Shown: positions 21,398-26,317 of the stretch, piece by piece | How the letters are laid out: each line of letters opens with the position of its first letter | Position numbering within the stretch: position 1 is the stretch's first letter | Source of the DNA: Candidatus Bathyarchaeota archaeon | Lineage (GTDB): Archaea > Thermoproteota > Bathyarchaeia > Bathyarchaeales > Bathycorpusculaceae | Assembly (NCBI GenBank): GCA_963826715.1 | Contig: CAWGYA010000008.1 | Span: 992,001-1,056,000, forward strand | Reading direction: 5' to 3' | DNA length: 64,000 nt | Notes under the pieces: model-generated | What the model was told of the DNA's origin: nothing | Seen by the model: only the letters and a program-made list of their open reading frames with translations | The model's database searches: none | Translations under genes and position numbers: made by a program

Positions 21398-23800
21398 TTG
21401 ATAAACAAGCTACCCGTTGAGAAACTCAGAAACATCTGTAACGCAAATTTCATGCATTGTCAATCAACTAAAGATCTTGTGCCACTCACAGAAATCATTG
21501 GTCAAGAACGTGCGGTGCGTGCCCTCAAATTCGGCTTAGGTATTAAAAACCACGGCTTCAATATGTACGTAGCAGGATACCCCGGAACTGGGAGAAAAAC
21601 TGCGGTGAAAAGTTTTGTGGAAGCCCAAGCGAAAACGATGCCAGTTCCTTCTGATTGGTGCTATGTCAATAACTTCGGCAACCAGTATGAACCAAAAGCT
21701 ATTCAGTTGCCTCCGGGCAAAGGCAAGGAATTCCGTGAGGACATGAAAAATTATGTTGAAAATGTAAAAAATGCTTTGCCGAAAGCTTTTGAAAGCGAAG
21801 ATTACCTTGCACGGCGGGAAGGGACGCTGCGTGATTTGGAGAATAAACGAAAAACGTTAATTGACGAGATGAACGTGAAGGCGCAACAAGAAGGTTTTGT
21901 CATACAAACCACTCCTGTTGGCTTGCTGCTTATTCCGGTTTTAGATGGCAAACCTCTTACTGACGCGGAAATGGTGGCTTTGCCCCAAAAAACCAAGGAT
22001 AAACTTGATGAGAAACGTGAAAAGTTGGAGACAGAATTCCGCAACACAATGCGGCAACTTATAGATATGGAACGCCGGATTCGTGATGCACTAAAAGGAC
22101 TCAACAAGGAAGTTGCGCTTTATGCCATTGGTAGTCAAGTACAGAGTCTCATGGAGAAGTATCAGTCTAATAATAATGTTACCGACCACCTCAAAGCGGT
22201 AGAGACTGACATTTTGGATAATCTTCAGGCTTTTGCTCGGAGAGATGGCGAACTCCAGAAGCAATTGCCGTTTACGATGCCCTGGATGAAGGAGGAACCC
22301 TACAAAAAATATGAAGTAAACGTAATCATTGATAACTCTGAAACCAAAGGCGCCCCGGTCGTTGTGGAAACTAATCCCACCTATCATAACCTGTTGGGGC
22401 GCACTGAGAAGGAGGCTCAGTTTGGGGCGTTAACCACAGATTTTAGTATGATTCGAGGTGGAGCTATTCACAGAGCTAACGGCGGGTACCTTATTTTGCC
22501 AGTTGAAGATCTTCTGCGCAACCCCCTCTCCTACGACGGATTGAAGCGGGACCTGCGGGATGGCAATATGACAATTGAGGAGCCTGAGGAACGCTACGGT
22601 TTTTTGAGCGTAAAAACCCTTAAACCCAAACCAATCCCGCTTTCTGCTAAAGTAATTCTCATAGGTGATCCTAACATCTACCAGATGATGTTTAGCCTAG
22701 ACCCAGATTTCCGGGAGCTCTTCAAGGTAAAAGCCGAATTCGACACCACTATGGCACGAATAGATACTAACATCAAACAATACGCTGAGTTTGTCTGTGG
22801 TTTATGCGAGCGGGAAAGTCTTAAGCACCTCAACGGCGGAGGTTTAGCTAAGTTGATTGAGTACAGCTCCCGTATCATAGAGGACCAATACAAACTCTCT
22901 ACCCACTTCTCGCTCATTGCTGATATTATTCGCGAGAGTAATTACTATGCTACCCAAGACAACTCTGAAGTAATTGAAGCCGACCACGTCATGAAAGCCA
23001 TAGAAGAAAAAATATACCGTAGCAAACTAATGCAAGAAAAAATTCAGGAAATGATAAGTCGCGGCTTCTTTCTTATTGACACTAGCGATCGAAAAGTGGG
23101 GCAAGTCAATGGTTTGTCGGTCATGGAACTTGGTGACTTCGCTTTTGGTACGCCTTCACGTGTTACCGTAAGCATTGGATTGGGTCGAGAAGGTGTGATC
23201 GACATCGAGAGGGAAGCAAAAATGGGCGGGCCAATCCATACTAAAGGTGTCCTTATTATAAGCGGTTATATTAACGACAAATATGCTCGCGATAAACCTC
23301 TTAGCCTCTCAGCGCGGCTAGTTTTTGAGCAGAATTACTCAGGTGTTGAGGGCGATAGTGCATCGAGCACCGAACTCTATTGTATACTTTCTGCGCTCTC
23401 AGGGCTTCCAATAAGACAGAACATAGCTGTCACGGGGTCGGTTAACCAGAAGGGGGAAGTTCAAGCCATAGGTGGGGTAAACGAAAAAATCGAAGGGTTC
23501 TTTGAAATTTGCAAAATTCGAGGCTTAACAGGCGAACAGGGAGTGCTGATTCCAGAGAGTAACATACAGAATCTGATGCTCAAAGAAGAAATCCTTGAAG
23601 CAGTCAAGGCTGGTCACTTTAGCGTTTACTCGGTAAAAACTATCGATGAAGGCATCGAAGTACTAACGGGCACCAAGTCTGGGCAGCGCCGTTCAGATAA
23701 TACATACGAAGAAAACACGGTCAACTATCTGGTGGATAAGCAGTTGCGCGAAATGGCAAACAAACTCAAAGAATATCCAGCTGCTGAAATGAAACCTTAA
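21398..23800 (+). CDS. Lon-family (LonC-like) protease
   Basis: IIGQERA, degenerate Walker A GYPGTGRK, GAIHRANGG, Ser-Lys dyad EGDSAS / GGVNEKIEGF. Confidence 0.9.
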   Translation: MINKLPVEKLRNICNANFMHCQSTKDLVPLTEIIGQERAVRALKFGLGIKNHGFNMYVAGYPGTGRKTAVKSFVEAQAKTMPVPSDWCYVNNFGNQYEPKAIQLPPGKGKEFREDMKNYVENVKNALPKAFESEDYLARREGTLRDLENKRKTLIDEMNVKAQQEGFVIQTTPVGLLLIPVLDGKPLTDAEMVALPQKTKDKLDEKREKLETEFRNTMRQLIDMERRIRDALKGLNKEVALYAIGSQVQSLMEKYQSNNNVTDHLKAVETDILDNLQAFARRDGELQKQLPFTMPWMKEEPYKKYEVNVIIDNSETKGAPVVVETNPTYHNLLGRTEKEAQFGALTTDFSMIRGGAIHRANGGYLILPVEDLLRNPLSYDGLKRDLRDGNMTIEEPEERYGFLSVKTLKPKPIPLSAKVILIGDPNIYQMMFSLDPDFRELFKVKAEFDTTMARIDTNIKQYAEFVCGLCERESLKHLNGGGLAKLIEYSSRIIEDQYKLSTHFSLIADIIRESNYYATQDNSEVIEADHVMKAIEEKIYRSKLMQEKIQEMISRGFFLIDTSDRKVGQVNGLSVMELGDFAFGTPSRVTVSIGLGREGVIDIEREAKMGGPIHTKGVLIISGYINDKYARDKPLSLSARLVFEQNYSGVEGDSASSTELYCILSALSGLPIRQNIAVTGSVNQKGEVQAIGGVNEKIEGFFEICKIRGLTGEQGVLIPESNIQNLMLKEEILEAVKAGHFSVYSVKTIDEGIEVLTGTKSGQRRSDNTYEENTVNYLVDKQLREMANKLKEYPAAEMKP

Positions 23801-24059: not shown

Positions 24060-25847
24060 CTACATCGTTCCTGCCCAGAAAGGAACCTTCTTCCTCATCA
24101 AATTCACGTATTCCTTTAGGACATCTTGCTCTTCAGCGGTTAAATCATCCATATGCTCTGTCAAGAACGCTTTCGCATCTTTCTCTGGAACCTTTACATA
24201 GAGTACATCACGCTCAAAGAGGTGTCTGCCCGCAATGGGTTTATCCATCGAAATTGCCACCTGCGCACCAACCTTTGCTTCACCGATGGCTTTACCCTTG
24301 TCTTGAATCTGGTCCACCTCACCTAAATCAGCACCGTCCTCCTTTCGCAAAAGCGACACTTTAGGTTTTATTCTTCCACCTTGAACCTCTACACCCGCCA
24401 CTAGAGGTTTGGCTCGGCGGAAAATGCAGTTGGGCAATACCATTAGTTTGCCCGGTTTTGTTAGGGCTTCGAATTCGGCTTCGCTCTTAGCTTCCCGTTT
24501 ACTGCGAACCCATTCAAGATAATTATCGATCAAGTTGTAGATTATGGGTTCCTTGAAGATTGTAACTCCGCTGGCTGCGGCTTCTGCTTCTGCATCAGGA
24601 AGGGTTTTTACGCCAAACGCCAAAACAGCACCAACTAATGGATCATGAGTCTTCACTACGGAAGCTTCGATTACATCACGTTTGCTGATGTCGCCGATGT
24701 CAGCAATACGGACTTGGACATTATTGGCTTTTAGAATCTCAGCTATGGCCTCCAGAGAACCTAAAGTGTCTGCCTTCACGATAACGCCGTCGATTTGCGT
24801 TGTTATACGGATTCTGCCGATTTCCTCAGTTATTAGATTACAGTATTTACCAATATCCTCGCCCTGAGGTACTGAAAGCAGTGGTGCTCCAGCTAATGCT
24901 CTCTCCAATCCAGGTGCAACTACTTTTACACCAGCTGATGCATAAACGGTTTCGACACTGGTGAATTTGTCTCTTGGATCCCTCATTTCATCTAGGGGTT
25001 TTGGAACCAGAATTGTACGGACCCTTGCAGAAATAGGGCCATCTTTGCCGCCGACTACTACTAGATCATCCTTATGTAACGTGCCATCGTAGACAATGGT
25101 GTTGAGTGTCAAACCTAAACCTGGTTCCTCTTTAACTTCGAGCACTGAGCCTTTAGCGGGTCCATCCGTAGTTTGTAGTCTTTTTTTGAGAAACTGCTGA
25201 GTTAATCCAACCAGTACCATGACGAGTTCAGCTAATCCTTCGCCTGTCTTTGCGCTTGTAGGGACCAAAGCAATGTTTAGGGTGAAATCGCGGATGTGGT
25301 CAAAGCGGTCTGTTTTGAAGGTTAACCTTGAGAATTCTCCCATGACCTGATATAGGCGGTTGTTGAAGTCTTCTTGCACAAAGCTGCTTTGATCTGCATA
25401 AGATTTTAGGAAGGGTGTGGATTGATGCGCTTTCCAGCCAGGGATGCGATCGATTTTGTTGACAGCAACGATGAAAGGGGTTTTACGGGCTTTTAGGATC
25501 TCTATGCACTCAAGTGTTTGTGCCTCAAAACCCTTAAGTATGTCCACAACTAAGATAGCGATATCTGCAACGCTTCCTCCTCTTCGCCTAAGATTCGTAA
25601 AGGCTTCGTGTCCGGGGGTATCCACTATAAGTAGTCCAGGGATTTCGATACCTGTTTTAAAGTTGCCCATGTAAGGTCCAATGAGTTGTTTTAGAGTTTC
25701 CACGGGGAAAAAACTGGCGCCAATGTGTTGGGTCATGCCGCCTGCTTCTCGAGCTTGAACGCTGGTTTTACGCAATTGATCTAGAAGCGAGGTTTTACCA
25801 GTGTCTACGTGACCTAGAACACATACTATGGGTTGGCGCGTCGGTAT
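24060..25847 (-). CDS. infB: Translation initiation factor aIF5B (IF2), probable non-canonical ATA start
   Basis: RQPIVCVLGHVDTGKT, EAGGMTQHIGA, DTPGHEAF, NKID and KADTLGSLEA. The G1 motif lies upstream of the listed 25775 start; the frame opens after TAA at 25868-25866. Confidence 0.93.
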   Translation of the reverse strand: MPTRQPIVCVLGHVDTGKTSLLDQLRKTSVQAREAGGMTQHIGASFFPVETLKQLIGPYMGNFKTGIEIPGLLIVDTPGHEAFTNLRRRGGSVADIAILVVDILKGFEAQTLECIEILKARKTPFIVAVNKIDRIPGWKAHQSTPFLKSYADQSSFVQEDFNNRLYQVMGEFSRLTFKTDRFDHIRDFTLNIALVPTSAKTGEGLAELVMVLVGLTQQFLKKRLQTTDGPAKGSVLEVKEEPGLGLTLNTIVYDGTLHKDDLVVVGGKDGPISARVRTILVPKPLDEMRDPRDKFTSVETVYASAGVKVVAPGLERALAGAPLLSVPQGEDIGKYCNLITEEIGRIRITTQIDGVIVKADTLGSLEAIAEILKANNVQVRIADIGDISKRDVIEASVVKTHDPLVGAVLAFGVKTLPDAEAEAAASGVTIFKEPIIYNLIDNYLEWVRSKREAKSEAEFEALTKPGKLMVLPNCIFRRAKPLVAGVEVQGGRIKPKVSLLRKEDGADLGEVDQIQDKGKAIGEAKVGAQVAISMDKPIAGRHLFERDVLYVKVPEKDAKAFLTEHMDDLTAEEQDVLKEYVNLMRKKVPFWAGTM

Positions 25848-25999
25848 CTGATTAGTCTCCTTAAATTATTATAGATTGAAATGAATTGGATGTTGCTTAA
25901 TAAATGCGCTGATTTTATTTGTTTTATGGCTCGTTTTTCATTTTTATTTGTTTGGCAACGTTTTTATTTTCTTTTAGCTTCGTAGGTGATGGTGTTGTT

Positions 26000-26317
26000 A
26001 TGCCTTACTGTTTTAAATGTGGTTCAGTGATAAAAATCGATGACCAATTTTGCGCTGTCTGTGGCGCGGCTGTACCTAAATTCACGAGTGAAGAATTCAA
26101 GGTTTCAGGCAAAGATTTGGTTGACCGAGTTGGTCAGTTGTTGCATGAAGGCAATGTAACTCGCTTAATTATTAAAGATGAAGAAGACAAAACTTTGTTG
26201 GAGATTCCTGCAACTATTGGGGTTCTGGGAGTGGTTCTTGTGCCGTGGCTAGCAGCTTTAGGTGTAATTGCTGCTTTGGTGACTAACTGCACTTTAGTGG
26301 TTGAGAGAAGAGAATAA
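26000..26317 (+). CDS. Zinc-ribbon plus DUF4342-like protein
   Basis: CFKCG...FCAVCG then EEFKVSG..LV..V..L.HEGNVTR.IIK...LLEIP; ATG at 26000. Confidence 0.75.
   Translation: MPYCFKCGSVIKIDDQFCAVCGAAVPKFTSEEFKVSGKDLVDRVGQLLHEGNVTRLIIKDEEDKTLLEIPATIGVLGVVLVPWLAALGVIAALVTNCTLVVERRE

Follow-up and report, generated by a model that had tools for sequence, protein, structure and literature searches.

The window analysed here is a stretch of 64,000 nucleotides from an archaeon of the Bathyarchaeia (contig CAWGYA010000008.1 of assembly GCA_963826715.1), and the gene in question is its minus-strand gene for translation initiation factor aIF5B (archaeal IF-2). In this gene the triplet at the position of the start codon is ATA, preceded at 8 nucleotides by a Shine-Dalgarno site. 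ATA was confined to this genome among all relatives examined, and near-cognate triplets (ACG, ATA, ATC, ATT or CTG) stand behind Shine-Dalgarno sites at the conserved starts of other genes in the same genome and in its genus. We consider it probable that the aIF5B start codon changed to ATA in this lineage and is read weakly as a start with the help of the Shine-Dalgarno site, as one case of a habit of the genus. The start-codon anomaly itself is most likely functional. "Genus" in all counts below denotes Candidatus Bathycorpusculum, as suggested by the names of close protein matches, and G000 denotes the window's own genome.

A 595-codon aIF5B frame read from ATA

The features of the gene and its start region, all on the minus strand of the window, are as follows.

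24060 to 25847, minus strand: aIF5B coding frame, 595 codons from ATA, with the stop codon at 24060-24062 (profile match)
25773 to 25775, minus strand: TTG, the first in-frame canonical start, 24 codons downstream of ATA and past the P-loop (sequence, gene calls)
25791 to 25814, minus strand: G1/P-loop motif GHVDTGKT, in frame with ATA and absent from products begun at the first canonical codon
25839 to 25841, minus strand: ACG two codons past ATA, a second candidate near-cognate start, GGAG standing at the less favoured spacing of -19 (sequence)
25845 to 25847, minus strand: ATA, aligned with the start codon of relatives, the proposed near-cognate initiation codon (alignment, contigs)
25856 to 25862, minus strand: Shine-Dalgarno site AAGGAGA, 8 nucleotides before ATA, whose AGGAG pairs with the 16S 3′ end CCUCCU
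25866 to 25868, minus strand: in-frame TAA that closes the frame six codons upstream of ATA (sequence)
25897 to 25904, minus strand: TTTATTAA, a TATA-box-like element 50-57 nucleotides upstream of ATA (conserved block in the alignment)

Read from ATA, the frame matched the profile NF003078 at full length with 808 bits (cut-off 468), residues 3-592 lying on profile positions 9-597, and a second profile, TIGR00491, agreed with 759 bits (cut-off 554.75). A profile search of the 2.64-megabase genome (8 contigs, 96% complete) found a single copy of aIF5B and, besides it, three partial matches that were restricted to residues 8-151 and scored 26-32 bits. The frame has been under purifying selection: in comparisons with 8 relatives, difference was 0.07-0.11 at nonsynonymous sites (pN) versus 0.72-0.81 at synonymous sites (pS). 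Because synonymous sites were saturated against every available relative, the ratio of nonsynonymous to synonymous change (dN/dS) gives no date for the ATA change, which we therefore call lineage-specific rather than recent.

On the minus strand the in-frame stop (25868-25866) is followed by TTT AAG GAG ACT AAT CAG and by ATA (25847-25845); downstream of ATA the frame continues with PTRQPIVCVLGHVDTGKT and then the G1 motif. No ATG, GTG or TTG occurred in any frame of the minus strand from 25930 to 25848. The absence of canonical triplets from all leader frames also ruled out a short upstream frame or a frameshift that would feed aIF5B.

To place the leader in the context of the genome, its 16S gene was located with Rfam RF01959. 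The 3′ end of the 16S ribosomal RNA reads ...GGAUCACCUCCU and is complementary to the AGGAG of the aIF5B leader. When the first canonical start of a frame was taken as a proxy for its true start, GGAG peaked genome-wide at -15 to -12 (47, 55, 66 and 79 cases at the four positions in 2385 long frames); before the ATA of aIF5B, GGAG stands at -13. A gap of at least 30 codons between the in-frame stop and the first canonical start was found in 116 of the 2385 frames and is not rare per se. What goes beyond chance at aIF5B is the conserved essential sequence inside the gap, the alignment of ATA with the start codon of relatives and the presence of GGAG at the modal spacing.

A TTTATWA block that holds TTTATTAA was invariant or nearly so across 22 aligned genus sequences, and TTTATTAA is probably the TATA box of aIF5B. 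A leaderless transcript driven from a second AT-rich element, TATAATAA (25873-25866), is disfavoured, as the conserved Shine-Dalgarno site argues for a leadered messenger RNA (mRNA). The elements that the initial annotation of the window had described, namely the coordinates, the AAGGAGA site, its 8-nucleotide spacing, the TTTATTAA box and a P-loop beyond the reach of canonical starts, were confirmed to the base. Its proposal that ATA stands in place of the start codon and that the gene must begin there was likewise borne out by the alignment with the start of relatives, the match of the Shine-Dalgarno site to the genome's own 16S and the same base in three sequencing runs.

Aragorn identified 37 transfer RNAs (tRNAs), including a normal initiator-like tRNA with the anticodon CAT. 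An unusual initiator was also considered, and no initiator-like tRNA with a TAT or CGT anticodon was found among the 37, intron-containing ones not having been sought. With a normal CAT initiator tRNA and an aIF1 gene that starts with ATG, no dedicated device for decoding AUA was seen.

Downstream, a Lon-type gene on the plus strand (21398-23800) converges on the end of aIF5B. On the other side a zinc-ribbon gene diverges on the plus strand, from about 26000, which makes aIF5B monocistronic and gives it a promoter region to itself. The zinc-ribbon protein (window 25919-26317, plus strand; MPYCFKCG...CAVCG...) is small and has a hydrophobic tail. Its longest frame opens at TTG 25919, and an ATG near 26000 is its likely start; the promoters of both genes must fit within the 150-nucleotide spacer.

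The A at position 25845

The base at issue is the third of the ATA triplet. DNA of the stretch occurs in soil metagenome runs, and contig pieces of three of them, X1, X2 and X3, covered position 25845 with 0 differences.

25400 to 26300: contig piece of run X1, word depth 6.8
25812 to 26077: contig piece of run X2, word depth 4.4
25634 to 26065: contig piece of run X3, word depth 3.7

The piece from a fourth run, X4, reached only 25850 and leaves 25845 outside it. The same A in the contigs of three runs makes a random error unlikely. Wholesale, motif-linked miscalling of G as A was rejected as well: GATGC, a word that the site would contain if it had G, is abundant in the assembly (5275 versus 3620 for GATAC), which makes a motif-wide miscall unlikely. 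In addition, two public gene calls were identical to the frame yet truncated, P0001 with 571 residues (from TTG 25775) and P0002 with 558 residues (from a later ATG). They sit on contigs of 1,293,929 and 1,314,818 bases, respectively, and both are without the P-loop. This truncation fits the presence of the same ATA in more than one assembly.

The initial annotation had named a G-to-A sequencing error or a strain mutation as the alternative to its proposal. An artefact of the consensus, with ATG in the organism itself, would explain why ATA was unique among all relatives examined, and this assembly shows at least two more singleton start-codon changes, in an ABC ATPase gene and in Sua5. All three runs stem from a single study, possibly with a common sequencing platform, and the evidence consists of contigs at word depths of 3.7-6.8, one run possibly being the source of the assembly. 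Against an artefact stand the identical base in three runs with no difference listed, the additional pair of gene calls, which lie on contigs that differ in length and are truncated just as ATA predicts, and the frequency of the supposed true words. Moreover, near-cognate starts are common to many independent assemblies of the genus (see below), so that such codons need no error to account for them. The A stood unchanged in the contigs of the three runs, all from a single study, and we regard an error as unlikely.

The aIF5B start codon in relatives

A search of 40 relatives' genomes recovered aIF5B in 38; the remaining two, 56% and 58% complete, matched only other GTPases. At the aligned start codon all 21 other genus genomes carried a canonical triplet (ATG in 15, GTG in 4 and TTG in 2), as did all 8 aligned from the order's other families (ATG in 4, TTG in 3 and GTG in 1). 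The third base of the codon was G in 21 of the 22 genus sequences and A only in this genome. These relatives are kin and not independent samples.

The comparison was extended to metagenomes with 80 loci fetched by means of the nearest protein relative. Canonical aligned starts were present in 56 of them (ATG 49, TTG 5, GTG 2); 6 loci lacked the N-terminus, 2 were cut at the 5′ end, and the further 16 were distant homologues (48-53% identity) with N-termini of other length, so that the extrapolated codon is not their start. We also searched a collection with one genome per species (185,579 species, the window's own genome left out) for ATA, ATT or ATC followed by the conserved downstream pattern and obtained 0 matches. 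Without the first codon the same pattern matched at least 118 stretches. Of 80 such stretches made into loci, 78 were aIF5B starts, with ATG (60), TTG (11) or GTG (7), and the other two were chance matches in bacterial genomes. The initial annotation had suggested looking for conserved ATA, ATT or CTG starts on aIF5B across relatives, and none was seen among those aligned; canonical starts were found in 29 of 29 genomes, in 56 metagenome loci and in 78 species-genome loci. ATA at the aIF5B start is confined to this genome among all relatives examined.

Among the best 118 non-self protein matches, 117 covered 99-100% of the query. The exception was the closest protein relative, P0016 (92% identity, 572 residues), encoded on a metagenome contig of 2953 bases. 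It begins MLRKTT..., just after the P-loop and exactly where the truncated call of the window's aIF5B begins. P0016 may represent a second genome without a canonical start or may be a contig artefact; its contig was absent from the 80 metagenome loci returned, the best of which showed 90% identity.

Near-cognate starts elsewhere in the genome and genus

To determine whether aIF5B is an isolated case, we examined codons that precede the first canonical start of their frame by 10 codons or more. The genome contains 8910 such codons, 100 of which have GGAG at -15 to -12. At frame starts behind GGAG with this spacing, ACG was observed 8 times versus 0.86 expected, and ATA 4 times versus 2.8 expected. 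Pfam searches identified frames in which a conserved domain opens before the first canonical start, namely those of an ABC ATPase (domain from residue 21, first canonical start at residue 108), an SMC-like ATPase (domain from residue 4-5), an Snf7-like protein and DnaG.

One conserved example was dnaG (G000:C1:63245-64429, minus strand), which has 127 codons without a canonical start; ACG occupies its conserved start position, and GGAG stands at about -13 from it. Of 16 other genus genomes, 15 share this ACG and one has ATG. In other families of the order, 3 of 10 genomes had ACG, and the remainder had ATG or TTG, either there or one codon further on. The gene for F420-0:gamma-glutamyl ligase, cofE (G000:C8:735313-736068, plus strand), has ACG behind tAGGAGAg in this genome. 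Among 29 genus genomes cofE started with ACG in 5, ACA in 1 (G041), ATG in 12, GTG in 10 and TTG in 1. The five ACG genomes look like one subclade, and one of them also has an in-frame ATG upstream.

A similar pattern, with other triplets, was seen in the Snf7/ESCRT-III-like gene (G000:C2:380019-380924, minus strand), which has an ACG start in this genome. In 10 of 29 genus genomes its start is ATA (2), ATT (1) or ATC (7), behind GGAGGG and directly after an in-frame stop, and in these 10 a canonical start is absent for 29-50 further codons. The other genus orthologs have ATG, GTG or TTG at the same or an adjacent codon.

Other changes were singletons. The ABC-transporter ATPase (G000:C6:33223, plus strand) has ACG here versus ATG in 13 of 13 orthologs; its leader, with a GAGGAG site, differs too. 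Sua5/TsaC (G000:C8:954516, plus strand) has CTG here, and the 29 relatives have ATG at the same codon (12), ATG one codon upstream (15), TTG (1) or an unclear start (1). An EndoIII-like gene belongs to this group too: of 29 relatives, G014 and G041 have a Shine-Dalgarno-preceded ATA, and in G005 a canonical start was absent. In the SMC/AAA_23-like ATPase (G000:C7:117083-119107, minus strand, 675 residues), ATA stands behind GGAGG where the first conserved strand begins, and the first ATG comes 22 codons after it. No homologue of this protein was found among 30 relatives, so that an accessory or defence role is possible.

Two paralogous HK97-gp10-like (tail-component) genes (G000:C5:79702-80070, plus strand, and G000:C7:131170-131535, minus strand) both have ACG behind GGAG at the start of the frame. 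The pair suggests that virus- or prophage-derived regions share the near-cognate habit.

This genome was also compared directly with 400 kilobases of the complete relative G014, using longest frames and stretches of high identity (184 ortholog pairs). In 79 of the 184 pairs the first canonical start lay at the same aligned position, and 20 of these 79 differed among ATG, GTG and TTG, indicating that start-codon identity turns over fast in the genus. In eight pairs, one of the two genomes seemed to have no canonical start. Three were dropped, with 12-29% identity in the stretch and a Met nearby, and five were convincing: aIF5B (ATA) and Sua5 (CTG) in this genome, and three genes in G014. The latter are a Lon-type protease with CTG (TTG in its ortholog in the window, 21398-23800, plus strand), a gene with ACG whose product in this genome begins MTHHDTDKK..., and the EndoIII-like gene with ATA.

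Many of the near-cognate starts recur in independent assemblies that vary in quality, from 1 to 320 contigs, and are therefore not errors. We are inclined, with modest confidence, to the view that in the genus and part of the order ACG, AUA, AUC, AUU and CUG behind strong Shine-Dalgarno sites are the real and only starts of roughly 1% of genes. Some of these starts would be long-held, such as the ACG of dnaG in the genus and three other families, and others, such as the ATA of aIF5B, would turn over fast.

How AUA could be read, and what weighs against it

In leadered archaeal initiation, Shine-Dalgarno pairing pre-positions the 30S subunit, and initiator tRNA in the aIF2 ternary complex samples the triplets in the P site, as described in PMC6237735; complexes on non-AUG codons are destabilised by aIF1. 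On that model an AUA 8 nucleotides behind AGGAG would be sampled and occasionally accepted. The canonical start of the single aIF5B gene would have become ATA, most simply by one G-to-A transition from ATG. The AGGAG of the mRNA leader would pair with the 16S 3′ end and place AUA in the P site, where initiator Met-tRNA (anticodon CAU) would pair with it despite a mismatch at the third position. Full-length aIF5B, beginning Met-Pro-Thr-Arg..., would thereby be produced at a reduced rate. What the data show directly is the DNA state, its restriction to this genome, the geometry of the Shine-Dalgarno site and the precedents in the lineage; from these we infer initiation at AUA itself, with Met as the first residue and a reduced output.

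A little aIF5B may suffice for the cell. In Haloferax volcanii, according to the experiments described in PMC3828320, aIF5B could not be deleted, yet depletion of its transcript gave no growth phenotype. Low output is plausibly tolerable because that depletion left growth unchanged. In Escherichia coli, AUA, AUC, AUU and CUG are reported to initiate at 1-2% of the efficiency of AUG, with N-terminal Met (bioRxiv 10.1101/063800).

Several points count against this account. Initiation at AUA is predicted from DNA; no RNA run containing the stretch was listed, which says nothing about expression. The efficiency figure is bacterial and may not hold in archaea, and ribosomes may in fact start at the ACG at 25841. 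With ATA confined to one genome, conservation offers no argument that this particular site works. The base is supported by low-depth assembled contigs from one study, X1 being a possible source of the assembly. Minority variants are lost from contigs, and ATG could persist as a rarer allele, or the A could be a systematic error of the platform. The ACG of the ABC ATPase, the CTG of Sua5 and the ATA of the SMC-like ATPase are specific to this genome and are known from its assembly. Finally, the view that about 1% of genes without a canonical start is unusual is provisional.

Initiation at ACG 25841-25839 would yield a protein two residues shorter. Among the near-cognates of this genome, ACG showed the strongest enrichment behind Shine-Dalgarno sites; dnaG has it as a conserved start, as does cofE within one subclade, and the first two residues of aIF5B lie outside the P-loop. 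However, GGAG stands at -19 from this ACG, off the peak at -15 to -12 (7 cases versus 47-79 per peak position), relatives with an ordinary ATG start (L011, L016 and L017) carry the same ACG Thr codon, which is thus no peculiarity of this gene, and ATA, not ACG, occupies the homologous start position. Use of ACG is therefore improbable, and AUA remains the favoured codon.

Loss of function is less probable still. Loss of the start codon is a classic inactivating mutation, and the tolerated depletion in H. volcanii could mean that a cell manages with aIF5B silenced or nearly so, either without the factor or with a very young pseudogene. The 595-codon frame is nevertheless intact and under strong purifying selection, it is the only aIF5B copy in the genome, its Shine-Dalgarno site and TATA-like box have been kept, and the same allele was present in three samples. 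The H. volcanii gene described in PMC3828320 could not be deleted, and aIF5B was found in nearly all relatives' genomes (38 of 40), which makes silencing very unlikely.

The least credible explanation is the one that the initial annotation had put forward, autoregulation through start-codon stringency: although an initiation-factor gene with an AUH-type start (H being A, C or U) and a good Shine-Dalgarno site formally resembles infC, and although the authors of the H. volcanii study speculate in PMC3828320 that fast down-regulation of aIF5B may at times be needed, no relative shares the ATA, the aIF5B start drifts freely among ATG, GTG and TTG, the same kinds of codon stand on unrelated genes (dnaG, cofE, Snf7-like, EndoIII-like, Lon, Sua5 and ABC ATPase), and the archaeal factor that judges starts is, in the account of PMC6237735, aIF1 and not aIF5B, the aIF1 gene of this genome starting with ATG. 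If aIF5B acts as IF2 and eIF5B do, more of the factor would favour initiation, and the loop would be positive rather than homeostatic. The initial annotation had itself named ATG at this position in all close relatives as refuting its idea, and the canonical starts found in every relative aligned amount to that outcome.

Comparison with known systems

The AUU start of bacterial infC carries IF3-dependent autoregulation. Both infC and the aIF5B gene described here encode initiation factors, have an AUH near-cognate start preceded by a Shine-Dalgarno site, and are truncated by gene callers restricted to ATG, GTG and TTG. The two differ in that many bacteria share the AUU start of infC and that IF3 itself rejects this codon, which closes the loop, whereas the ATA of aIF5B occurs in one genome. 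Likewise, the genes for eukaryotic eIF1 and eIF5 are initiation-factor genes with weak initiation signals, in the form of a poor start context. In those genes, unlike in aIF5B here, the weakness is conserved, operates via scanning and context and concerns the factors responsible for stringency; the aIF5B gene analysed showed none of these traits.

Bacterial infB belongs to the same family as aIF5B and has internal starts that give rise to IF2 isoforms, and several in-frame starts are conceivable in aIF5B as well. The infB isoforms all keep the GTPase domain, whereas use of the downstream TTG or ATG of aIF5B would remove the P-loop and leave no working factor.

A further likeness is to sporadic non-canonical starts in bacteria, where a Shine-Dalgarno-led AUA is paired with a mismatched initiator tRNA and Met is inserted at a low rate. 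The present host differs in being an archaeon with eukaryote-type aIF1, aIF1A and aIF2 and in that ACG is included among the codons. The introduction of bioRxiv 10.1101/063800 names infC and pcnB as the two confirmed E. coli cases, and near-cognates seem far more frequent in the genus (2-3 per 184 genes compared). Ribosome profiling in H. volcanii, as summarised in PMC7261190, found that about 30% of putative alternative initiation sites were near-cognate, a hint that archaeal ribosomes can use such codons. Those sites are alternative or extra ones that the authors, in the same text, set aside, whereas the ATA described here is the only possible start of an essential gene.

Significance

Table 11 of the genetic codes lists ATA, ATT, ATC and CTG as possible initiators. 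The ATA of aIF5B is a near-cognate start of a type already among them, and its value is as a lead to the genus-wide pattern: comparison with relatives turned one odd codon into several housekeeping genes that have only ACG or AUH at conserved starts. No published report of genus-wide near-cognate starts was found in a literature search that did not extend to most subscription journals. If the pattern is true, near-cognate initiation that is both natural and conserved would have been described in archaea for the first time.

The pattern also bears on annotation. Both public aIF5B calls (571 and 558 residues) lack the P-loop, so that the protein would be misjudged as defective, and if the near-cognate starts are real, standard gene callers would systematically truncate such genes in these genomes. 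The genus is uncultured and dwells in soil and gut, and the pattern is present in many of its independent assemblies.

If the codons are used, the stringency of start selection in archaea would be looser than the ATG/GTG/TTG rule of gene finders, and sister species with AUG and non-AUG alleles of the same gene would serve as natural tests of Shine-Dalgarno pairing versus aIF1 proofreading. An archaeon with eukaryote-type start-selection factors would then tolerate near-cognate codons much as eukaryotes do.

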